Assembly (NCBI GenBank): GCA_028293025.1
Contig: JAQGLF010000010.1
Coordinates: 1-52,909, forward strand
DNA from: Alphaproteobacteria bacterium
GTDB taxonomy: Bacteria; Pseudomonadota; Alphaproteobacteria; Sphingomonadales; Sphingomonadaceae
Reading direction: 5' to 3'
DNA length: 52,909 nucleotides
Under the pieces are notes generated by a model that was given only the letters and a program-made list of their open reading frames with translations, made no database searches and was not told the origin of the DNA. Every line of letters begins with the position of its first letter. Within the stretch, counting starts at the first letter, position 1. A program made the translations under genes and the position numbers. Positions 20,516-33,648 of the stretch are shown here, in pieces.

Positions 20516-21322
20516 GTGACAGATGTAACGGAACCTGCCTTGAAAGCAGGGTATGTGATCTGCACCGAGGAACGGTCGGGCAGTAACCTGCTGTGTCATC
20601 ACCTTGAATCGACAGGCGTGCTAGGCAGGCCCGATGAAGTCTTCAAATACGCCGCCGCCGTCGCAAGACTGCGCCACGCCGGACCGTCCGGCCTGTACGA
20701 TCGCCTGAAGCCTGCGACCACCGCTAACGGCGTGTATGGCTTTAAGCTCTTTAGCGGTCATTTTGATTTCATCGCGGGCACCGACTGGCTGGAGCGCCTT
20801 CCCGCTCTTCAGTTCGTCTATCTGGAGCGCCGCGACCTTCTGGGGCAGGCCATTTCATTGGTGAAGGCTACGCAAACGCGGAGTTTTCGAGCTTCCATAA
20901 CGCCCATGACCGAGCCGTTCTACGACCGCGCCGCGATCGCCTTCGCGCTACAGAGGCTGACGCTGGCGCAGGCGCGGTGGAAGATATTTTTCGCCACGAA
21001 TGATCTGCGCGCCCTCCCTCTCACCTATGAAGAAATTTGCGACGATCCGATGGCTGCGGTTCGCTCGATTGCGGAGAGAGTCGACGTGGACGTCGCGGGC
21101 ATCGTGTCATCGGCACCCGCCATGAGTGTTCAGCGCAACGCCGTGAGCGATGAATGGCGCGAAAGATACGTTCAGGATGCCGGCGGCTTGCGGCGCATTG
21201 CTCCTCTCGGATTTAGCGCGCTGCGCAACAGCGGCGGTACGGTGGCACGCAAGCTTGTCGGGAGGTTTCCATTTTCCAGCTGGTACGGGCCGACCTTGCC
21301 CGCCGTGCGCCCGCCAGAATAG
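20516..21322 (+). CDS. Stf0-family sulfotransferase
   Basis: 5'-PSB motif CTEERSGSNLL, GRPDE, NGVYGFK, 3'-PB motif RRDLLGQAIS and LTYEE. Confidence 0.85.
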   Translation: MTDVTEPALKAGYVICTEERSGSNLLCHHLESTGVLGRPDEVFKYAAAVARLRHAGPSGLYDRLKPATTANGVYGFKLFSGHFDFIAGTDWLERLPALQFVYLERRDLLGQAISLVKATQTRSFRASITPMTEPFYDRAAIAFALQRLTLAQARWKIFFATNDLRALPLTYEEICDDPMAAVRSIAERVDVDVAGIVSSAPAMSVQRNAVSDEWRERYVQDAGGLRRIAPLGFSALRNSGGTVARKLVGRFPFSSWYGPTLPAVRPPE

Positions 21323-22312
21323 CTACCGGAGATGTTCACGCGGAAGGGGAGCGGGGTGCGCGATCTCCCGGCGTTTTAAATAGGCCGTGAATGAGCCCGC
21401 GAGCTCGATCGACCTAAGCATCACGGCCATCGCCGCAAGGATCGGGATGCTGATCCAGCCGAAGCCCATCTGGCGTCTTTGGGCGACGATGGCGCGCCAG
21501 TCGTTAAGCGTTCGCCGGGTGCTGAGAGCTATCAGGCCAAGAAGGCCGAACCGTCGGATAATGGGCGTACCGCGTAGCACCGCGCCATGATCCTGAAAGT
21601 GGATGCCGATTGCGTCGAGCCCTCGCTGGAAGTGCTTCTCGATGAATGCGAAATTCCCTACGTCGCCAATGCCATGCGACATCAGCATCGTGGAACAGTA
21701 AACAATCCGTTTTCCGGCAGCGCGAAGATGAGCATATTGAACATAGCAGCCGCCGTGGCGCATCACGCGCTCGTCGAAGGGAAAACTTACCGCGACATCT
21801 CGTCGAAATCCGACGTTGTTCAGGTTGAAGGCGGTCGCTTCTCCATCGGGCTTGGCCGTCGCACCGGCAAAGGAGGAAACTGAAAAGGCGCGCGCGATCC
21901 ACGATCCTCCGGGATAGCGGGTGCAGCCGCCGACAACATCGACTCCGTCGTCGCGGAAGACACCGACCATGACTTCCAGCCAGTCGACAGACGGTTCGCA
22001 GTCGCCGTCCAGCATGGCGACGATCTCGCCCGTGGACGCGGCCACGCCCGCATTCTTGGCCGCGAAATAGTTGTTGGCACGCGGTGCGATCACAAACGTG
22101 ATATCCGGATTCAGATGACGCAGATCGTCGGCCTCGGCTGCATCGATTGAATGATCGAGTATGACGATCGGCTGGATAAGCGCCCACGGGTAGGTCTGGC
22201 GTTTTAAGCCCGCCAGTGTCCGGCCCAGATCCTGGGCCAGGGTGGACAATGCGCCTTCAGCCCGGGTCGTGACGGTTTCGATCACGACCGAGACACGGGG
22301 TTGACAGGTCAT
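21323..22312 (-). CDS. Glycosyltransferase family 2
   Basis: VSVVI, QTYP, AKNAG, MLDGDC (DxD) and FPFDE motifs; ATG at 22312. Confidence 0.8.
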   Translation of the reverse strand: MTCQPRVSVVIETVTTRAEGALSTLAQDLGRTLAGLKRQTYPWALIQPIVILDHSIDAAEADDLRHLNPDITFVIAPRANNYFAAKNAGVAASTGEIVAMLDGDCEPSVDWLEVMVGVFRDDGVDVVGGCTRYPGGSWIARAFSVSSFAGATAKPDGEATAFNLNNVGFRRDVAVSFPFDERVMRHGGCYVQYAHLRAAGKRIVYCSTMLMSHGIGDVGNFAFIEKHFQRGLDAIGIHFQDHGAVLRGTPIIRRFGLLGLIALSTRRTLNDWRAIVAQRRQMGFGWISIPILAAMAVMLRSIELAGSFTAYLKRREIAHPAPLPREHLR

Positions 22313-22559
22313 GGCAGCAATCTCCGAACGCCAACCTCCATCTGATCCGGGACGAGGCGGCCAGGAAGCCGACACCTTGGATCACCCGATCCCGACCGCG
22401 CGGCGATAGACCAGATCACGTCGATTGGCGACAGAGCGACCGCGAGCGCGCCCAGGTCAACACAGTCGGCACGCCAGATTGAGGAGCAGCCGATCCAGCA
22501 CATCGACGGCTGCGCGCGATCGCGGTGCCCGCCAAGACCGGTCCGTTTAAGTGCTTTCG

Positions 22560-23594
22560 CTAACGATCCAGGACGGGCCCAAGTTGGAGAAAGCGGTCGC
22601 GGTCGAGCGTCCGCAGCAACCATCCGAGGTAAAGCGAGCGCAGCTCAGCCCGCCGGACTAGGCGCAGCGCGAGCCTGCGGATGAAAGCCGGGACCGGCAG
22701 GCCGAGCAGCCAGCGGCTGAGGAGATTCCACGCGCTGCGCAGCCGCACCAGTCGCCACGCCGCCCGGCGGGAGGTGCCAAGCAGCGACAGCGCCAATCTA
22801 AGATTGGGCGTGCCGCGCGAGAAGGGCTCGGCAACGCCGCGGCGCCGCGCTTCGGCGGCCGCGGTGACGCAAACCGAGGCGAGGGCCATCCGCACCGGCT
22901 GCCGCGCGCTGATGCTTTCGCCGTGGATCCGGTAGCCGATAAGGATCTCATCGAGATTGGCCAGCTCGCAATGTTCGGACATCCGGGTGTAGAGGTCAAA
23001 ATCCTCGGAAACGTTGAGGCCCGTTCGATAGCCGCCGATCCGGTGAAAGACGTTCGCGCGCATTACCGTAGACGATGCGATCAGGGCTGGGCTGGTTCGC
23101 TGGCGCGCGCAGATATCGCGGTGGCGTTGCGGCGGTCTGAGTTCTCCGAGGCGGCGGCCGGCGCCGTCGATCAGTTCCGCCGCGGACCCGAGCAGGCCGA
23201 TGCCGGGCCGTGCCTCCATCGCGGCCAGCTGCGCTGCGAGGCGCCCAGGATAGGCGATATCGTCTCCGTCGAGCCGGGCGAGCAGAGGCGCTCGGGCGAC
23301 GGAGGCGGCGTAATTCAGGGCCGCGGCCAGCTGCGGGCGGCCGAGACGCAACGGACGAAGGCGCGGTTCGCTGCGGGCCCAGTCCACGAGGATGTCGAAG
23401 GTCGCGTCGGCGCTGCCATTGTCCACAGCGACGATCTCGAAGTCACAGAAGGTTTGGGAGGCGAGGCTTTCCAAAGCCTCCCCGAGGAAGCGTGCGGCGT
23501 TGCGCACGGGCATCAGCACCGATACCGCAGGCGGGCACTTGCCGGCCTGAGCCTCCGCGCGGTCGTCGCCGGGGCCATTCGAGGGTGAATCCAT
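22560..23594 (-). CDS. Glycosyltransferase family 2
   Basis: VSVLMPVRN, VDNGSAD, RLDGDD, SEDFDL and YRIH motifs. Confidence 0.88.
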   Translation of the reverse strand: MDSPSNGPGDDRAEAQAGKCPPAVSVLMPVRNAARFLGEALESLASQTFCDFEIVAVDNGSADATFDILVDWARSEPRLRPLRLGRPQLAAALNYAASVARAPLLARLDGDDIAYPGRLAAQLAAMEARPGIGLLGSAAELIDGAGRRLGELRPPQRHRDICARQRTSPALIASSTVMRANVFHRIGGYRTGLNVSEDFDLYTRMSEHCELANLDEILIGYRIHGESISARQPVRMALASVCVTAAAEARRRGVAEPFSRGTPNLRLALSLLGTSRRAAWRLVRLRSAWNLLSRWLLGLPVPAFIRRLALRLVRRAELRSLYLGWLLRTLDRDRFLQLGPVLDR

Positions 23595-23695
23595 GGGGAT
23601 CATTCCGCGGCGTTAGGCTGCCCGCCTCGCCTCGGTCAACGAAGGCCCTGGCGCGGCTGGAGACTCAGGCCCCGCGCGCTTATGGTGCGTCGGGA

Positions 23696-24610
23696 ATGAC
23701 CGGCCCACTCGTCTCTGTCATCCTCCCGGTCTTCGACCGCGCCGGATCGATCGCACGCGCGATCGAGAGCGTCCTCGCCCAGAGCTACGGCCATGTCGAG
23801 CTGATCGTAGTCGACGACGGCTCGACGGACGGCACTGCAGCGATCCTCGAAGCCTATCGCGGCACCGCTGCGATCCTGCGCCAGGCGAATGGAGGCGCCT
23901 ATGCGGCGCGCAATCTCGCGCTCCGCCACGCCACCGGAGAGCATGTCGCCTTCATCGATTCCGACGATGCCTGGCTCCCGCACAAGCTCGAACGTCAGGT
24001 GCCGCTGATGCGGCCCGGAATTGGCCTCGTCTACGGCGATGTCGACATCGTGACGGCACCGGACGATCGCGCGCCACGCACAGGCATGACCGCGTTCAAG
24101 GCGGTGGCGCCCGTCCGGGGACGTGCGCTCGAGGCGTTCGCCCGCGGCAATTTTGTGCCGACCAGCACCGTACTCGTCCGGGGCTCCGCGCTCCAGGAGA
24201 TCGGCGGCTTCCCGGAGAGCCGCATCTCGGCGGATTATCTTGCCTGGTTCCGGATCGCGCAGGCCTATGCCTTCGACTTTGTCGACGCGCCGGTCGCGCT
24301 CTACACCCAGCACCAGGCGGGGATCAGCCACGATCTCGGCCGTTCCCTCGCCGCCCGTATCTCGCTCTTTCGTGCCGAGCGGGAGCGAACGCGGGCTCCG
24401 GCGGCGCGCGAGGTTCTCGACCGGCTGCTGTTCAACCTCGGCGTCTCGATGGCCCTGGCAGCGGTCAGGGGCCGTGCCAGGACAATCGAGCAGCCGTTCC
24501 GGCTCGCCCGTAGCGCGGCGGCAGGTATCGGCACCAGGCGGGCATTGTTGTCTGCCGCGGCCTTCGCGGCTAACCAGATGAAAATACGGGCAAAATGGCT
24601 TTTCTCATGA
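23696..24610 (+). CDS. Glycosyltransferase family 2
   Basis: MTGPLVSVILPVFD, VVDDGSTD, NGGAYAARN and FIDSDDAW motifs. Confidence 0.9.
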   Translation: MTGPLVSVILPVFDRAGSIARAIESVLAQSYGHVELIVVDDGSTDGTAAILEAYRGTAAILRQANGGAYAARNLALRHATGEHVAFIDSDDAWLPHKLERQVPLMRPGIGLVYGDVDIVTAPDDRAPRTGMTAFKAVAPVRGRALEAFARGNFVPTSTVLVRGSALQEIGGFPESRISADYLAWFRIAQAYAFDFVDAPVALYTQHQAGISHDLGRSLAARISLFRAERERTRAPAAREVLDRLLFNLGVSMALAAVRGRARTIEQPFRLARSAAAGIGTRRALLSAAAFAANQMKIRAKWLFS

Positions 24611-24886: not shown

Positions 24887-25093
24887 ATGAAAACGTTTGT
24901 CTTTGTGCACGGAACGGGAGTGCGCGAGGCGTCGTACAGCGCCAGTTTCAGCCTGATTCAGCAACAGCTAAATGCAAAACTTGGGCCTTTAAGCCGCGCC
25001 TCTTTGTTCATGGCTATCCGAAGGGTAAGGCCGGTTAAAAGGAATTCCGAGCCCTGTGGCATCGTCACGCTTGCCGACGAACAGCCCATCTAG
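24887..25093 (+). pseudogene. Truncated alpha/beta-hydrolase N-terminal fragment
   Basis: Starts MKTFVFVHGTGVRE (hydrolase beta-strand + HG oxyanion motif) but ends after 68 codons without a nucleophile motif. Confidence 0.5.
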
Positions 25094-25240: not shown

Positions 25241-25666
25241 CTACGTGGCGAGCTCGGTTGTGACGTAGCGCACGATGACCGTCCTAAGCTGATTGCCGCT
25301 AAAAATCATCCGAACGGATGTTCTCCCGCGCGTGAAGCACCAGTCGTCCTCTTTAAGCAGATGGTCGCGTGCGTCCGCGGCGGAGTACAATGCAATGCCT
25401 CCCGCCCGATTATCGCCCCAGCAGGCGGGATCAATCTGCATCTTCTGGCGGGTCACAGTCTCGACTACCGCAGCTTTCGTCAGTCCGACAGGAATCCCCA
25501 GAACGCTTCCGGAGCCATACGAGTGATCGAAATTAAACAGCGGAGGGCGTAGAAAGCGGGCGACCTCAGGCCGGGACCGACCGATCCATGGAGCCGCGAA
25601 AAGGCATAAACAGGCGTAAACGCCCAAAGTGCCGGCAACGATAAGGCTGACGGACTTAGCAGCCAT
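25241..25666 (-). CDS. Putative RHS immunity protein (N-terminal TM/signal, exported domain)
   Basis: Overlaps the RHS stop by 11 nt. Hydrophobic N-terminus and a GIPVGLTKAAV motif resembling SmpA/BamE-like folds. Confidence 0.7.
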   Translation of the reverse strand: MAAKSVSLIVAGTLGVYACLCLFAAPWIGRSRPEVARFLRPPLFNFDHSYGSGSVLGIPVGLTKAAVVETVTRQKMQIDPACWGDNRAGGIALYSAADARDHLLKEDDWCFTRGRTSVRMIFSGNQLRTVIVRYVTTELAT

Positions 25667-28600
25667 GGTTGGCCCTCAGTTCCTTCGTACAGCGAAAGGA
25701 AATTTTCTGAGATGCATCGGCTCCCGGAAGGATCAGTGTGAATTTTCCTCGATCGACGGGGCCTGCACCTTCTATGGCATTGGCTTTATCTGCAACGCCA
25801 AAAGCGGCAGAGTTGCTGTTATCCGCGGGCGTTGACCTCCATTCGCCTTCCGGACCGAGAGAGTGGTCGGCCGCGCTCGGCACATAGGAATATGGCCGAT
25901 CTTCCCGCACTGCGTGAGCGACTGCGTCAACAACCGCATCGGGTGCCTTGATCCTTACGACGTTCGAGTTCGAGCCCTTTCTGAGGCGTTCCCACGCGGC
26001 GCGGTCGTCACGGCTCGTATATGCTGCCCCTGAAGACGCTCGCCGTGGGTCCGATATATCGCCGGTGTGGTTGTTCGACATTGGACCAAAAGAGTGGATA
26101 GTTGCGTGCGGGTCACCCAGGTATCGGGCATTGGAAACCACAAACGAGTGGCCGATGCCGAGGCTCCCCAGAGAGGAGCTCAAGCGCCTCGCCACCAAGT
26201 ATGCGTCCTCCCCGGACGGGTCGTTGTGACCGACTGGATCATTGCCGACGTACGCATACAGGTTGACCTGATCCTTGTATCCCACCGGGTCCGTCTGGAG
26301 GAAACGCCCGAGGGTCGGCGAGTAGATTCTCGCCTTGTAGTACCACATGCCAAGCTCGGGGAGCCACGCCTGGCCAGTATAGCCGAACCGGCCCAGGTTC
26401 GTCGAGTTGGGTATTCCCCACGCGTCGTAGCCGTTGATCGCAATGAGATTGCCGTTGTCGTCGGCCACCGAGATGATCGAGCCCTGGTGATCCGTGTGAA
26501 GGTGACGGCGTGTCCATCCCGCGGACGCCTCATACCATTCGAGCACGTCGTCGGCTGCGGGACCGTGGACGTAAGAGCGCAGCGGATTGCCGATGCCGTC
26601 ATATTCCAAGATCAGGCGGTCGCCGTCGTACAGGAACCGGGTGGCGCCGTTCGGCCCCGACACTTGCCACAAGCGCCCCAGGGGGTCGTACCCGAGGCTC
26701 GCGCTCTTCGCCCCCGACGCCGACACTAGCCGATTCTCAGCGTCGTAGACGTAGCTCGTGGCCGCATCCGAGGTGAGATTGCCGTTCGCGTCGTACGTGA
26801 ATGCCGAGGGCCCGGCAGCGGTATACTGGTTAAGCCCGTTGACGCTGTAAGCGCGGCTGACGTTGTAGGCGCTGTTGGACGCGTAGGCGTCGTTCGAGCT
26901 GGCCCGGCTGACGATCTGGCTGGCGGGGCTGTAGCTGAAGGTCAGACTCTGGTCGCCGCCGGTGCCGGCAAGGTCGTGCGTCACGCTGGCGACGCGGCCC
27001 GCCCCGTCATAGCCGTAGCTCGCGGTCGAGGTGGTGTAGCCCGGGCCCATGCTGAGACTGGAGCGCCGCCCCTGCGCATCGTAGCCGATCGACACCACCC
27101 CCAAGTACGCGGTCATGCGGTCGGCGGCATCGTAGCTGAACGACGCTGCATAGCCCCAGTAGCCGCCATCCCCCAACAGCTGCGTTCGGTTCCCCACCGC
27201 GTCATACTGGGAACCGATCGTTCGCGCCGTGCCGTCCATCGTTGTCGCGGAGGAGACCAATCGACCCAGCGTGTCGTACCCGTTGATCACCCCCGGGCCA
27301 ATGTTCGAGCCGAACCGCGCAAAGGTCTGCAGTCCACGCAGATCATAGCCGTAGAACACGCTGTAGCTGGCCGCGCCCGTGGCGGAGGTGGGCACGTTCT
27401 TCTGCGTCATCCGGTCGAGGCCGTCGTACGCATAGCTGATCGTCGTCCCGTCTCGCTTTCTTAGCGACGCGCGGTTGCCGTTGAGGTCGAAGCCATATTG
27501 CTCGTAGTCGGCAGCGTTCACTTGGCCCGCGGTGGTGGCGGAAGGGAACGTCCAGCTTGTCTGCCGGTCTAGGCCATCATAACCCATAGCGGCCAAGTTG
27601 CCGTTAGCATCGGTGACGCTGGTCTGCTTTCCGTTCAGGCTGTAGCCGTAGCTCGCATAATTCTGTTGAAGCGACGTAGCGTAGGCTCTTTGCACCGTCG
27701 TCAGCTGGCCGGCGGCGTCGTAGACATTCCGAGTGATACGGTCCGGGCCGTATGCACCCTGCGCCCCGACCGCGCACGCGGAGGCCGGCAGCGACCCGTA
27801 AGCCGTAGGGTTCATCCGCACCGCTGTGCATTGCAGCCGCCCGACGGGATCATAGCTGAACTGGGTGAGCGATTGGGCCGCTCCGCCCGCAATGAGGGTT
27901 TCAGTCGCCTTGCGCCCTTCAGAATCGTAGGTCGTAGAGATCTGCCGGTCCACCATCATCTCCGCGAGGGCCGCATCGGACTGATCGACCGCGTGGCCGG
28001 TCTCGGCAAGCGTCGGCTGGTTGTCTGCGTTGTAGGTCATACGGATCGCTGCGACAGGGAGCGGTCCGGCGCCGTCGGGGTCCGGTCCCACCGTCGCTAC
28101 GAGTCGCCGAAGGCCATCGTAGACGTAGCGTGTCGTGTCGCCTGGGCCGGGGAGCGGCCCGTCGATCGTGACGAGGTTCCCGACCGCATCGTGTGCCTCT
28201 GTCGTCGTAGCGCTTATTGAATTATCGCCCGCGCGCACAGTCTCGGTCGCCACGAGCAGGTTGTCGTCATAGGTGTAGCTGGTGACTACTTCATCCGCCG
28301 TGCCGGCGCAGATCGCCTGAGTGCGGCAGGTAGAAGTCGACACTAGTTTCCAGATGGAGGTTTCATTTACCAGCTGACCTGTGGGGTTGAGAACCTTCGC
28401 CGAGAGCTGCTGGTAGGTGTAACGTATCTGCGGGCGTATCCCAGCGGGGTCAGGCGGTAGGGTCTTGGTGAGCACGCCGCCATGCACAGGGTCGTAGGTG
28501 TAGTCCGTTCGGTTCCCCTTAGGGTCCACCTCGTAGGCCGGTTTGTTGCAGAAGGTCGACTCCGGCCCGGTGCAGCTGGCCGGATAGCTGCGTGTCCAGG

Positions 28601-29981
28601 ATAGTGCCGGTTCCGCCGTGTTCGGTTTGGGGGCCACCGTAATGCTTTGGAGATTGACGCGGCCGGTCCACACGACGTCGTCATAGACGTAGGTCGCCTT
28701 GTTTCCTTGCGGGTAGGTGACGGTCCTCACCGTCCTGACGTCCTGTCCCGGGGTTGCCGTCTCCCCGTACGGCGCACGGAATTCGTATATCGTATTCCGC
28801 GCCAGTTCATCGGTGATTGTGCTGGCGTTCCTCACCGTCTGCGTCAAATCCGGTGCTATCCTGGTGACGGCATCGCTCAGGCAAGATGTCTGTATTCTCC
28901 CCTGCCCATCCATTACCGAGATGGTGGTGGTCGTGTGGCTGTAGTTCCAGACGCTCGTCGGCGTCTGCACCCTCCAGATCTTCGCCGCCTCGTAACAGGG
29001 CGGCCCGCCGTAGACGCCGCCTTCGAGACCGGAGGGCTGTTGAGGAGCAAATGGCGCTCGGCTCGTATATGTCCTGGTGATGCCTGTGCCGCTCCGGACC
29101 TGGGACGACCATTCGTAGATGGCCTGGCCATTCACGGAACCGACCTGCGGGCCGCGCACGGACCAACCGGAAAAGACGCTCCGCAGGCTAGAGGTGGTCG
29201 CGGTCTTGCCGGAAGCGTCGGAGCCCCAGCTGATCGAAGGCCAGGCGGTGCCGTTTGACGGACAGCTCGCTGTCAGCGGATCGCAATATTGATAGCGGCG
29301 ATTGAGGAGGACAATCCTGGCGAGGGCGGCGCTCGTGCCGCTGCCGCTCCACTCAAACTGCATCTGATAGCCGGCGCTGCTGACGATCGACCGTAGGACC
29401 CCCGTCAAATTGCCGTCGTTTGGGGGCGACGAGTAATTATACTTCAGTACCTCACCATCAGCGCGGGTAATCGAGTTTAAATAGTAGTCGGGGTAATCGG
29501 TGTTCGCGTAGCCAAGGTAAGTGGTGGGCGTGAAATTCCATTTCGCACCGGATCTGTCATAGAGGGCGTAGCCGTTCTGATTTGATGCCAACGAACCATC
29601 GGTCAGCCGGGCGCCCATTGAGCGGTTCGTTTCGATCCGGCCCGCAAGGTAGAATTCGTCGTAAAAAGACGGATAGCTGCCCCGCATGCGATGGAAGGCT
29701 CGATTCGGGGTGCCGCCGAGACCCGCGCTGCCATCGCTGACTTCCAGCGTCGGGGCGTCTGGGGCGCCGATCGAGATAGCGCTGTCGGCGCCGACGCGTC
29801 CTCCGTTTAACAGGTCGATGCCGACCCCGTCCGGCAGGACCGTCTGGGGAAGAGGCGGCGCGTTGCTTGCCGTCTGCGCGTTAGTCTGGGCTCCGCTTGC
29901 AGCCAGGATGAGGAGCAGCACCGCAGAAAGCGGGCGAATAACGCGGATGAGCGATGCCTCGCTCGCGTTAGTGCGCGTCAT
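25656..29981 (-). CDS. RHS/YD-repeat polymorphic toxin with N-terminal signal peptide
   Basis: Many YDxxGRL repeats. Core motifs HTDHQGS, FGYTGQ, YYKARIYSPTLGRFLQTDP and NLYAYVGNDPVGHNDPSG, then a 184-aa C-terminal domain. ATG 29981 overlaps the upstream stop (ATGA). Confidence 0.93.
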   Translation of the reverse strand: MTRTNASEASLIRVIRPLSAVLLLILAASGAQTNAQTASNAPPLPQTVLPDGVGIDLLNGGRVGADSAISIGAPDAPTLEVSDGSAGLGGTPNRAFHRMRGSYPSFYDEFYLAGRIETNRSMGARLTDGSLASNQNGYALYDRSGAKWNFTPTTYLGYANTDYPDYYLNSITRADGEVLKYNYSSPPNDGNLTGVLRSIVSSAGYQMQFEWSGSGTSAALARIVLLNRRYQYCDPLTASCPSNGTAWPSISWGSDASGKTATTSSLRSVFSGWSVRGPQVGSVNGQAIYEWSSQVRSGTGITRTYTSRAPFAPQQPSGLEGGVYGGPPCYEAAKIWRVQTPTSVWNYSHTTTTISVMDGQGRIQTSCLSDAVTRIAPDLTQTVRNASTITDELARNTIYEFRAPYGETATPGQDVRTVRTVTYPQGNKATYVYDDVVWTGRVNLQSITVAPKPNTAEPALSWTRSYPASCTGPESTFCNKPAYEVDPKGNRTDYTYDPVHGGVLTKTLPPDPAGIRPQIRYTYQQLSAKVLNPTGQLVNETSIWKLVSTSTCRTQAICAGTADEVVTSYTYDDNLLVATETVRAGDNSISATTTEAHDAVGNLVTIDGPLPGPGDTTRYVYDGLRRLVATVGPDPDGAGPLPVAAIRMTYNADNQPTLAETGHAVDQSDAALAEMMVDRQISTTYDSEGRKATETLIAGGAAQSLTQFSYDPVGRLQCTAVRMNPTAYGSLPASACAVGAQGAYGPDRITRNVYDAAGQLTTVQRAYATSLQQNYASYGYSLNGKQTSVTDANGNLAAMGYDGLDRQTSWTFPSATTAGQVNAADYEQYGFDLNGNRASLRKRDGTTISYAYDGLDRMTQKNVPTSATGAASYSVFYGYDLRGLQTFARFGSNIGPGVINGYDTLGRLVSSATTMDGTARTIGSQYDAVGNRTQLLGDGGYWGYAASFSYDAADRMTAYLGVVSIGYDAQGRRSSLSMGPGYTTSTASYGYDGAGRVASVTHDLAGTGGDQSLTFSYSPASQIVSRASSNDAYASNSAYNVSRAYSVNGLNQYTAAGPSAFTYDANGNLTSDAATSYVYDAENRLVSASGAKSASLGYDPLGRLWQVSGPNGATRFLYDGDRLILEYDGIGNPLRSYVHGPAADDVLEWYEASAGWTRRHLHTDHQGSIISVADDNGNLIAINGYDAWGIPNSTNLGRFGYTGQAWLPELGMWYYKARIYSPTLGRFLQTDPVGYKDQVNLYAYVGNDPVGHNDPSGEDAYLVARRLSSSLGSLGIGHSFVVSNARYLGDPHATIHSFGPMSNNHTGDISDPRRASSGAAYTSRDDRAAWERLRKGSNSNVVRIKAPDAVVDAVAHAVREDRPYSYVPSAADHSLGPEGEWRSTPADNSNSAAFGVADKANAIEGAGPVDRGKFTLILPGADASQKISFRCTKELRANHGC

Positions 29982-30595
29982 TGGCAAATATCCCTTGGCA
30001 CATCGACGGTGAGCGTCGCAGTTGCGGTCGCGCCCGCGGCATTCTGCACGGTGTAAGTGGTGGCAAACGTTCCGACCTGCCCGCCGTTTGTGTAGCGGAT
30101 CGTGCTCGGGGACAGGATCGAAAAGCCGGAGTCGCCACTCACGAAGATCACTGCCAGCGGGTAATTGCCGTTTGTGTCCGTATCATTTGCGGTGACGTTG
30201 AAATCCCTGGCTTGGCAGCGCTGCCCGGTTCCCGTGTCCGCAACGGCTGTTAACCCACCTCCGGGCGGCGGGGGAGGGGGATGGGGAGGCGGCGGCGGCG
30301 GCGGCGGGGGAGGCGGGGGAGGCGGGGGAGGCGGAGGCGGGGGCGGCGGAGCCGGAGGCGGAGGCGGCGTGCCGCCACCTGCGCCCGTCACGCTGTAGTT
30401 GGAGCGGTTGCCCGCCGCGTCGTAGGCGATGCTTGTCGCCAGGCTGCTATTAACTGTCCCGCTGCTCGTCGTTGCGACGAGACGTCCAAGCGCGTCGTAG
30501 GTGTAGGTCGTCGTCTCGCTTGCCAGTGCCGCTGTCGCCAGCACGCAAGAAGATGACGCCAGGAATAGCCTGGCGGTCATGGTTTTACTGCGCAT
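29978..30595 (-). CDS. Small secreted protein: YD-repeat hairpin, polyproline linker, Ig/cadherin-like (Big_9-type) domain
   Basis: Signal peptide ending ALA-S; ETTTYTYDALGRL...YDAAGNRS; 33 Pro in 35 residues; AVAD...NVTANDTD...TYTVQNAAGATATATLTV. Confidence 0.8.
   Translation of the reverse strand: MRSKTMTARLFLASSSCVLATAALASETTTYTYDALGRLVATTSSGTVNSSLATSIAYDAAGNRSNYSVTGAGGGTPPPPPAPPPPPPPPPPPPPPPPPPPPPPHPPPPPPGGGLTAVADTGTGQRCQARDFNVTANDTDTNGNYPLAVIFVSGDSGFSILSPSTIRYTNGGQVGTFATTYTVQNAAGATATATLTVDVPRDICQ
30263..30367 (-). repeat. Polyproline-encoding (CCN)n low-complexity tract
   Basis: 35 codons, 33 of them Pro, using mixed CCG/CCC/CCT codons. Confidence 0.9.
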
Positions 30596-30835
30596 CGCAA
30601 GCCCCTCTTGCTGCTGAGACGTAACGAACACAAGAGTCGCGCACGTGTCAAGACCGCTAAAGATATTTTATAACAGTTGACGATTATTTGGTTGGTCCTC
30701 GCGATGGATACGGCCGTCTTCGTCTCTCAAATATTTGAGACCCAGAGTGCACCCAAAAGTTCGGGGTTAAGAACCTCTGCGCTCCTTCGCTTCTCTCGAA
30801 GCCCACTCAGAACGTCGCAAATGGGCTAATAACTT

Positions 30836-31133
30836 ATGATTAGGGGAGAGGAAGATTGTGCTGGCGCGGCTCGACAGCCGTTCGAGGTACGCCCGGATCG
30901 AGATTACTCCGGTACGATGGTGAGCGGCGTCTCCGCCGCCGGCGCCAGCCTCACCCGTAGCTTTTTCAACGGCGCAAATTTCGCAGACGTCGTACTACGA
31001 GACTCTGATCCAGCAATACGGAACTCACCGAGATCCAGGCGACGACCGCACGTTCACCGGGTGCAATTTGCACGGGTCGCTCTGTTTACAAGAAATTCAG
31101 CTGAATTGCTTCAAATCGCACTACGCCTTGTAA
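30836..31133 (+). pseudogene. Frameshifted pentapeptide-repeat protein remnant
   Basis: ASLTRSFFNGANFADVVLRDSD continues in another frame as SNTELTEIQAT and in a third as TFTGCNLHGS. Confidence 0.55.
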
Positions 31134-31182
31134 GCGCTTGAATGGCCCAAGCCGGACATCCGGGCGCAATAGCGGAGCGGCC

Positions 31183-31566
31183 CTATCGAGTGGGTACTGT
31201 AGCCCCGGAGTAAGGATCGGAATCAAGCGAGGGAGGCTGAGGAGGCAATCTGGGGATAACAATGGAAGTCGAAGTTTGCGCCGTCTGCAGGGGTGCATAC
31301 AACGCTGCCGGCTCTGTTGTCGATCGGATCCCGGCCACTATGGACGAGACACCAAAGACGATGAAGCACCCCACAATTACACTGGCACCGCGGCGCCAAT
31401 TGGTTCTCCCGGTCAGCATTCCGTAGCCGACGGAAGCCACCGCTATGATAGCGACCGTCGTAGCGATCGTTCCAAGTACACCACCCTGTAGCCAATCGAC
31501 GGCGGCTACGATGGCGTTCGAGCCTGTCGGGTCAGATAAGTCGTTCACAACGAATGGCTGTATCAT
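31183..31566 (-). CDS. TrbC/VirB2-family pilin-like protein with Pro-rich C-terminal tail
   Basis: WLQGGVLGTIATTVAIIAVASVGYGMLTGR...VIVGCFIVFGVSSIV two-helix VirB2 signature; tail ends DPYSGATVPTR. Confidence 0.8.
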   Translation of the reverse strand: MIQPFVVNDLSDPTGSNAIVAAVDWLQGGVLGTIATTVAIIAVASVGYGMLTGRTNWRRGASVIVGCFIVFGVSSIVAGIRSTTEPAALYAPLQTAQTSTSIVIPRLPPQPPSLDSDPYSGATVPTR

Positions 31567-31860
31567 CTGCCGCCGTCGCCCCCAAGCCCAACAAGAACCG
31601 TGACGTTTCCGGGCAGCACGAACTGACTGGCGATTGCGGGACGAATCGCGGCTCTGTAGGCTCCGAAGGGAAGGTGCTAGTTGTTTTCGGATCCTACAGT
31701 GCGCGCCAGTCGCAACGCCGATCCGCCGGCGCGCCTGTCACTTCAAGATCCGTTCGATTTGGCATTTGTGCATTTTCTATAGTATCGCGAAGTATGTACC
31801 AACCGGCCAACGCAATAAGAGAATAAATGTCGTTGAATAGTGGAATGCGGAGAAAGCGCT

Positions 31861-32463
31861 ATGGTAACGGGGTTTGATTTGTTTCTGCAGAGAGGTTACT
31901 ATATCGCTCAGATCGTTTTGGCGGGAATAGCATTGGCTGCGGCTTGGCTCGCCTACCTACACGTTCGCACATTTAAGCTCTTTGAAATCCTGAAATATAT
32001 CGAAAATGATCCGATCAGAGACGCTAGACGTATCGTGATTCAAAAAATAGAAGGGCAAGGGACAGCCGAATGGTGGCTCGAAACGAACTCAAAGTTAGAG
32101 GCGGCAGCTTCAAAGGTATGTAGTACATATGACGTAGTTGGTCTCCTAGTGGAATTTGAGACCATCAAGCTTGTGATGATTAGACCGAGATACTGGGGCT
32201 TGTTTGAAAAGTATTGGGCCGTTAGTATATATAGAACGCACGAAGCTCTTAGGTCGTTCTTGGCTCATCGCCGGTTAACCGCGCCGAATGCGTACGAGGG
32301 CTATACCCGGTTAGCGCAGTTAGTTAAGCCGTATGTTCCCGCTCCGACAATTGAAATCATAGCGAAGGCAAATTCCGCGCAGAGGCCACGTCCCACCGAC
32401 GATGTGCCAAGATTCTTAGAGGGCGCCGGCACTAAGCTGGCGCCGACCCCGCGACCGGATTAG
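31861..32463 (+). CDS. Hypothetical membrane-anchored protein (DUF4760-like)
   Basis: N-terminal TM helix, IRDARRIV and VCSTYDVVGLLVE motifs, AT-rich codons. Confidence 0.5.
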   Translation: MVTGFDLFLQRGYYIAQIVLAGIALAAAWLAYLHVRTFKLFEILKYIENDPIRDARRIVIQKIEGQGTAEWWLETNSKLEAAASKVCSTYDVVGLLVEFETIKLVMIRPRYWGLFEKYWAVSIYRTHEALRSFLAHRRLTAPNAYEGYTRLAQLVKPYVPAPTIEIIAKANSAQRPRPTDDVPRFLEGAGTKLAPTPRPD

Positions 32464-32501: not shown

Positions 32502-32861
32502 ATGCGCAGGATAGCATTGCTTCTCGCACTGGTCGGCGCGGCCACGGCGGCAGCGTCGCAGCAGGTCGACAGCGGCGATTCCACCTTCGTAGACGGAATA
32601 TTGGTGACGAGCTCAGATGTGACCACCTGCCCCTATCATTTCGTTCAGCCGGTGAGCGTAAGCGTAACGACGGACTGGGGCGGCAACGGCCGGTCAGTGA
32701 TTTTCGAGAAGCTTCGCAACCAGGCGCGAAAGATCGGCGCCGATGCGGTCGTGCTGGTTTCCAAGGGTGGCAAACACATGACCGCCTGGGCGTGGACTCG
32801 CCGTGAATACAATGGGGGGGCCATCCGCTACGTCGATCGTCGTTGCGCCCCGAGCCGCTAG
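32502..32861 (+). CDS. Secreted YbjQ/RcsF-like small protein
   Basis: Signal peptide, EKLRNQARKIGADAVV motif, two cysteines. Confidence 0.6.
   Translation: MRRIALLLALVGAATAAASQQVDSGDSTFVDGILVTSSDVTTCPYHFVQPVSVSVTTDWGGNGRSVIFEKLRNQARKIGADAVVLVSKGGKHMTAWAWTRREYNGGAIRYVDRRCAPSR

Positions 32862-33555: not shown

Positions 33556-33648
<93 letters not shown>

Follow-up and report, generated by a model that had tools for sequence, protein, structure and literature searches.

Sec-dependent polymorphic toxins attributed to a type II secretion system (T2SS) combine a signal peptide, RHS repeats, and a variable toxin domain, and the survey that described them states, in the part of its text available, that classical polymorphic toxins do not use type IV secretion systems (T4SSs) (Zhang et al. 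2012, PMC3482391). The accessible portion of a report on Xanthomonas perforans presents Bcn-A as an antibacterial RHS bacteriocin of ~1400 amino acids that has an immunity gene and needs xpsD (PMC7259588). Teneurin-like proteins, as far as the available text covers them, have signal peptides and variable adhesion domains in cis, with no obvious delivery machinery (PMC13018210). Among T4SSs, the Bordetella Ptl system has neither VirD4 nor VirB5, and the subunits that it exports are delivered by Sec and assembled in the periplasm; according to the accessible part of the same account, pertussis toxin measures 60 x 60 x 100 Å, and its recruitment from the periplasm and passage through the outer-membrane core are open questions for which no structure is available (PMC12857230). 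Here, we characterize a four-gene cassette in a 52,909-nucleotide stretch of DNA (hereafter, the window; positions 1 to 52,909 of the forward strand of contig JAQGLF010000010.1, GenBank assembly GCA_028293025.1) from a soil-type alphaproteobacterium of the family Sphingomonadaceae; homologs with assigned names indicate a sphingomonad close to Allosphingosinicella. The cassette encodes a VirB2-like pilin with a proline-rich tail (tailed VirB2), a small partner protein with a YD repeat (mini-YD), an RHS toxin, and a likely immunity protein (Table 1). It very probably belongs to a widespread class of Sec-exported RHS proteins with a dedicated mini-YD partner. For the host genome, the best-supported mechanism, which on balance we consider probable, would be a two-step export of an antibacterial RHS toxin, first by Sec and then by a Ptl-like VirB machine.

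The co-oriented arrangement claimed in a first-pass annotation of the window was borne out: all four genes lie on the minus strand, and both proposed overlaps (ATGA at 29981-29978 and 11 nt at 25666-25656) can be read directly from the junction sequences. The pilin gene is uncoupled from the rest of the locus, with 587 bp separating it from the ATG of the partner gene. The RHS protein begins, as had been proposed, with a signal-peptide-like segment and without PAAR or VgrG (Pfam and NCBIfam searches); the accompanying claim that it has no DUF6531 start did not hold, since a divergent DUF6531-like start does exist. The segment is hydrophobic over part of its length (11-mer mean, 2.94) and has an AxA site followed by Q (residues 35/36), and by the same hydrophobic-plus-AxA heuristic, which is not SignalP, such a start is present in 45 of 54 scorable homologs (63 examined, 54 with the conserved N-terminal motif). 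At the mature N terminus, 7 of 24 segments match PF20148 at E ≤ 0.1 (2 above the cut-off); the window protein's own N-terminal segment gave no match at that threshold. We considered and rejected delivery through a type VI secretion system (T6SS), given the lack of PAAR and VgrG and the signal-peptide-like start in their place. The T6SS protein VipB was not found in any of the five genomes searched, in which the control matched; one of these is the host genome, which is 88% complete and in 389 contigs, so that absences from it are weak evidence.

The closely spaced cysteines that had been read as a sign of periplasmic folding are well conserved. The pairs 470/478, 552/558, and 718/736 are kept in 43 to 52 of 44 to 52 aligned rows, and a fourth pair is common (Cys 233 in 21 of 32 rows and Cys 240 in 32 of 34). 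Such near-invariance fits periplasmic disulfides. An AlphaFold model of residues 58 to 1257 (84 rows; predicted local distance difference test [pLDDT] score, 86; predicted template modeling [pTM] score, 0.83) resembles known Rhs shells (Foldseek E value, 8e-42; for 8qja, Z score of 30.0 and root mean square deviation of 7.8 over 861 residues), and the core aspartates D1231 and D1254, associated with self-cleavage, occur in 69 of 69 RHS rows. Many relatives encode the protein as two separate genes, with the break near residue 610, and several of the resulting C-terminal halves themselves begin with a signal-peptide-like segment. The related RHS proteins found number at least 2391, and the class reaches Brevundimonas, Caulobacter, Niveispirillum, and the gammaproteobacterium Steroidobacter.

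The C termini of this class are polymorphic, with small genes downstream of them: 78 sequences fall into 70 clusters, 14 of the 78 contain Pfam families (e.g., HNH, Ntox21/28/44, CdiA RNase A, lysozyme, 3D, and lipase), and 64 have none. Orphan arrays of core plus C terminus lie downstream of RHS genes in relatives. Together with the invariant protease aspartates, this diversity and the toxin-type families argue against reading the RHS protein as a nontoxic surface adhesin followed by a gene unrelated to immunity. That reading could draw on the adhesin-like passengers of the partner and on the window C terminus, which has no Pfam match and for which structure prediction gave no usable fold (pLDDT, 33); we regard it as highly improbable. 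The window C-terminal domain has one further homolog (48%), with H and NSNS motifs in common, and its atlas look-alikes, which are a lead only, include TseH and DUF3750 clusters at 0.92. It would probably act as a papain-like envelope hydrolase. The 141-amino-acid product of the last gene, for which no Pfam or NCBIfam family was found and which has weak BamE/BLIP-like look-alikes (scores under 0.9), is likely the cognate immunity protein. A second RHS gene of the same class is present in the host genome (contig C302, 6189-8837; L007), where it is interrupted by the contig end; its C terminus differs from that of the window RHS, and a small gene lies downstream.

The partner belongs to a large family without a name, in which a signal peptide precedes ~45 residues of the form ETxxYxYDxxGRL...YDxAxNR (a double YD hairpin). 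Its 150 best profile matches are mostly short proteins with a single match, and the 40 members scanned often have only ~72 amino acids or carry Big_9/cadherin, Calx-beta, RTX, He_PIG, or F5/8 galactose-binding domains. A co-oriented RHS gene follows mini-YD in 29 of the 31 metagenome loci (from a set of 80) that extend at least 4.5 kb downstream; mini-YD is thus a constant component of the locus. Its YD repeat, which RHS has as well, and the translational coupling suggest that it would dock on the RHS shell; profile comparison placed it only on a generic YD pair. No shared DNA motif upstream of mini-YD was found in the 70 of 163 upstream regions sampled. One mini-YD protein (P0249) ends in a glycine-rich domain that may resemble the gp38 adhesin tips of T-even phages, which would fit a receptor-binding role. 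At L055 11705-12394 and L120 13277-13552, mini-YD-like genes separate virB4 from virB6, a position normally taken by virB5. A further subfamily has a VVLPLNG[FY]TxIP-like tail (L232 7772-19998, L239 8602-13586, L233 7902-8216, and L244 1360-1695); in genomes G221 and G058, proteins with this tail are encoded beside a dedicated T2SS cluster with several small secreted proteins (~90-140 amino acids).

The first-pass annotation proposed looking for a virB operon without virD4 and relaxase genes elsewhere in the host genome, and one is present, with B2-B6 on contig C283 and B9-B11 on contig C180; VirB8 was not seen and would fall in the gap between the two. Searches of the host genome found no VirD4, relaxase (PF03432 and one TrwC-like query only), operon VirB1, GspD/E/F/G, or VipB. 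The operon order is virB2-3-4-6-8-9-10-11 plus tailed virB2, with no SLT/virB1, virD4, or relaxase gene, and in a wider scan of 79 loci tailed virB2 is usually the last gene. In G071, Pfam recognizes B2, B3, B4, B6, B8, B9, B10, B11, and tailed B2, and the operon faces mini-YD, RHS, and a second, split RHS. Unlike normal VirB2, the tailed protein has no cleavable leader; it has two hydrophobic helices, a proline-rich linker, and a conserved C-terminal motif (DP[YF]xGAxVP). Since no tailed copy follows B11 in the host, the window pilin gene is probably a detached operon copy. VirB5 (PF07996) gave no match in five genomes, where no control matched either, and virB4 runs straight into virB6 in most operons read. 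No VirB7/PtlI gene was called between virB6 and virB8, where open reading frames (ORFs) under 50 amino acids were not called.

These gene contents bear on two other views of the machine. In the first, an integrative element would own the operon as its conjugation system, either degenerate or acting in trans, with the RHS cassette as cargo; for it speak the VirD4 and relaxase genes 38-86 kb away in G071 and G089 and the position of the window locus beside a tRNA gene in lower-GC DNA. Against it, each of the VirD4 genes of G071 and G089 is accompanied, within 4-9 kb, by a distant VirB4-like gene of its own. VirD4 was found neither in the host nor in G136, and the matches in three of five genomes adjoin other VirB4-like genes. 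The toxin-linked operon of G136, a single-contig genome, is accompanied by no match to VirD4, relaxase, or GspD, and no relaxase or coupling-protein match was obtained on a complete Sphingomonas aerolata plasmid, typed as nonmobilizable, that carries the operon, tailed B2, mini-YD, and RHS together. VirB1 is missing, and VirB4 is intact across genera (56-84% identity). This view is very unlikely, and the identification of the operon as a conjugative system of mating-pair formation type T (MPF_T) was rejected because no coupling protein and, with PF03432 and one TrwC-like query, no relaxase was found with the machine. The alternative of an adhesive pilus, mediating contact or surface display of RHS instead of toxin passage, has a parallel in the Bartonella Trw system, which, in the accessible description, has several copies of VirB2 and no VirD4 and is regarded as an adhesive pilus (PMC12857230). 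The extra VirB2 paralog and the adhesin-type passengers of the partner would suit it, but Trw has VirB5 tip adhesins, whereas here virB4 abuts virB6 in most operons read, and no other conserved outer-membrane exit gene was seen in the loci; we consider an adhesive role quite unlikely. A second VirD4-less virB type (type II; e.g., L219 3629-11459) comprises SLT, B2, B3, B4, B6, B9, B10, and B11 without VirB8. It is near-universal in some genera (24/24, 16/17, and 9/9) and adjoins TonB-dependent receptors, with no RHS link.

The association between toxin and machine was surveyed in one draw of 250 Sphingomonadales genomes, each at least 98% complete; related genomes in it are nonindependent, the locus sets used below overlap partly, and genome searches scored top candidates only. 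By identity to the host VirB4, we distinguished type I (≥56%; 36 genomes) and type II (50-55%; 78 genomes), with 7 genomes having both. Mini-YD is present in 18 of 36 type I genomes, 2 of 71 with type II only, and 15 of 143 with neither, and 11 of 36 type I virB4 genes, versus 0 of 78 type II genes, have a mini-YD gene no more than 15 kb away. The operon and mini-YD are less than 1.5 kb apart in G136, G218, and G089, and adjacency recurs across several genera. Manual classification (full coverage, no stop) assigned tailed VirB2 to 22 type I, 3 type-II-only, and no other genomes; mini-YD occurs in 17 of the 25 genomes with it, compared with 18 of the 225 without it. In a FastTree phylogeny of 79 VirB4 proteins, all links to tailed VirB2, mini-YD, and RHS fall in one clade (56 rows, including the host VirB4; Shimodaira-Hasegawa-like support, 100), with none among the 23 rows outside. 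VirB1 accompanies 1 of the 56 rows inside this clade versus 18 of the 23 outside. Among unselected loci of a scan seeded with the tailed pilin, a set from which 10 loci chosen for their linkage and 8 further ones are excluded, links occur at 11 of 38 inside the clade and 0 of 20 outside. Detached tailed VirB2 copies in the same scan have RHS or mini-YD nearby in 7 of 16 cases, and G246 contains two detached pairs, one of them co-oriented like that of the window. The enrichment of RHS and mini-YD that the first-pass annotation had anticipated was therefore found, both beside one VirB4 clade and beside tailed VirB2. Its suggestion of a separate pilin variant for every toxin locus found no support and was rejected: a VirB2-like gene is present in 4 of 18 partner loci of at least 15 kb and in 0 of 20 RHS loci from relatives, and most genomes have one tailed copy. 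The idea that tailed VirB2 is an unrelated orphan, raised by a genus sample with RHS near 2 of 10 copies, was dropped after these wider surveys.

Several observations weigh against VirB export. Type I VirB4 is missing from 17 of 35 mini-YD genomes, of which 12 have GspD, 2 have type II VirB, and 3 (G130, G166, and G030) have neither; a distant VirB4-like gene is present in G166. G130 (3 contigs; 99%) contains mini-YD and a long RHS ORF with no VirB4 and no GspD match. In the genus of the host, the cassette occurs in G003, G004, G008, and G017 although VirB4 does not, with GspD/GspF missing from G004 as well, and G007 (99%) combines tailed VirB2, mini-YD, and RHS but has no cognate VirB4. Conversely, 18 of 36 type I VirB4 genomes have no mini-YD, and most toxin loci have no pilin. 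Transposases and integrases frequently surround both gene sets, so that shared island hotspots could inflate the linkage. Cassettes without VirB4 may be orphaned or may use another exit.

Other exits are indeed close at hand in some lineages. The same RHS class and mini-YD-like genes flank a full T2SS cluster on Asticcacaulis pASTEX02, mini-YD variants adjoin T2SS genes in G221 and G058, and 20 Caulobacterales mini-YD loci include RHS in 15, T2SS genes in 3, and VirB in none. Since the same cargo class adjoins a dedicated T2SS in these lineages, the outer-membrane step looks interchangeable, and a cargo that folds in the periplasm would require just such recurrent pairing with two different machines leading from there to the outside. 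The RHS protein might accordingly be thought to leave by a general route (a housekeeping T2SS, a Tad secretin, vesicles, or lysis), with virB nearby through shared mobile islands. The dedicated T2SS clusters just named, the GspD genes in 12 of the 17 mini-YD genomes without type I VirB4, the secretin-like match in all 41 genomes examined for it, the occurrence of neither exit in G130, and the need of the RHS bacteriocin Bcn-A for xpsD, as given in the available description (PMC7259588), all speak for such a route. Against it, the link is confined to one VirB4 clade (0/23 rows outside it and 0/78 type II genes), the operon often adjoins mini-YD in several genera, and the operon does not explain island mobility because its DNA-transfer parts are missing. 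In addition, no T2SS was found in the host genome or in seven linked genomes (7 of the 18 with both mini-YD and type I VirB4 have no GspD match). We judge a general route unlikely, though by no means negligible.

Export by Sec and then by a VirB-like T4SS or T2SS, as the first-pass annotation had envisaged, came through each genomic test proposed for it, and what ties RHS export itself to this route is genomic association. In the two-step mechanism that we favor for the host, RHS and mini-YD would be exported by Sec and would then fold and join in the periplasm, from which a VirD4-less, Ptl-like VirB machine encoded elsewhere in the genome would push them across the outer membrane. The mini-YD hairpins would extend the beta-shell of RHS, and the variable passenger attached to them (Ig, Calx-beta, RTX, or lectin) would serve as the binding subunit. 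RHS and mini-YD would thereby follow an A-B logic like that of pertussis toxin, with split-RHS relatives forming a three-chain cargo. Tailed VirB2 might act as a minor pilin that takes the role of VirB5 by helping, with its periplasmic, proline-rich tail, to engage or push the cargo. Once the toxin is released, its C-terminal domain would be cut off and act on competing bacteria, and the presumably membrane-anchored 141-amino-acid protein would protect the producer. More tentatively, and with somewhat less than an even chance in our estimation, this scheme may be generalized to a dedicated sphingomonad Ptl-like T4SS that exports folded two- or three-chain RHS cages, assembled in the periplasm, against other bacteria, with mini-YD clipping on swappable binding domains, tailed VirB2 replacing VirB5 as the pilin that engages the cargo, and the same cargo open to re-wiring to a dedicated T2SS.

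No description of an RHS-VirB association was found in the full-text literature, a scope that leaves out most subscription papers and the supplement of PMC3482391. If the proposed route is real, classical polymorphic toxins would have their first T4SS route, and the statement in PMC3482391 cited above would be overturned. The route would also provide a tractable second model of pertussis-type export, harmless and environmental, with a matching set of parts and a cage-shaped cargo, in culturable strains, including S. aerolata PDD-32b-11 and S. elodea; supply a function for a widespread orphan virB operon; and open up a large toxin pool as yet unexplored, considering the size of the RHS class and the share of its C termini without a Pfam family.

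The cassette lies in a stretch of lower guanine-plus-cytosine (GC) content at ~25-33.5 kb (GC, 0.55-0.64 versus ~0.69), the edges of which are given in Table 1. A duplicated 3' end of the tRNA-Ser gene was sought and not found, and promoter and terminator scans gave chance-level results only. Of the two accessory genes between the pilin gene and the tRNA gene, one has a weak DUF4760 match, and the other encodes a small secreted protein without a family.

Table 1. Coordinates of the cassette and of neighboring features in the window
Feature	Position	Strand	Basis or remark
Stf0-type sulfotransferase and three GT2 glycosyltransferases	20516..24610		Left of the island
68-amino-acid fragment	24887..25093	+	Resembles alpha/beta hydrolase start; left island edge
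Likely immunity protein, 141 amino acids	25241..25666	-	Position, overlap, N-terminal hydrophobic helix
RHS polymorphic toxin, 1441 amino acids	25656..29981	-	TIGR03696 (E 6e-22); predicted Sec signal
RHS C-terminal toxin domain, 184 amino acids	25656..26210	-	TseH/DUF3750-like (permuted NlpC/P60-type), lead only
Mini-YD partner, 205 amino acids	29978..30595	-	Signal-peptide-like start, one RHS_repeat match, poly-Pro, Big_9; ATG at 30595
Tailed VirB2 paralog, 127 amino acids	31183..31566	-	TrbC/VirB2 PF04956 (E 2.7e-12) and 45-residue Pro-rich tail
Accessory gene	31840..32463	+	Low GC
Accessory gene	32502..32861	+	Low GC
tRNA-Ser(CGA)	33559..33648	-	Right edge of lower-GC stretch

Compared with described systems, the predicted apparatus shares with B. 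pertussis Ptl a VirB-only machine without VirD4, substrate genes beside the machine, and cargo with Sec signals (here predicted from genes). The ptl gene order, B2-3-4-6-8-9-10-11, is that of the operons described above, and an RHS shell would be similar in size to pertussis toxin. The two differ in that the cargo here is a polymorphic toxin with an RHS/YD shell and an immunity gene, whereas that of Ptl is an AB5 toxin for animal cells; in addition, the present system has a further VirB2, which is tailed and has no leader, and no VirB7/PtlI homolog was identified. The Rhs effectors of the T6SS (8qja, 8cp6, 7q97, and 8h8a) have the same YD shell, self-cleavage aspartates, polymorphic C terminus with immunity, and DUF6531-like start, but the signal peptide, the Cys pairs, the separate mini-YD, and the two-gene split forms distinguish the present class. 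By its available description, which mentions no signal peptide for it, Bcn-A depends for its activity on a two-step secretion machine, the T2SS, and has accessory ORFs downstream and no VirB link. The adhesion-type domains that teneurin-like proteins carry in cis are found here on the separate mini-YD chain. The bactericidal X-T4SS of Xanthomonadales relies on VirD4 and on effectors from the cytoplasm that have an XVIPCD at the C terminus; a VirB-type machine is tied to antibacterial toxins in both cases, whereas in the system proposed here there is no cognate VirD4, and the cargo has Sec signals.

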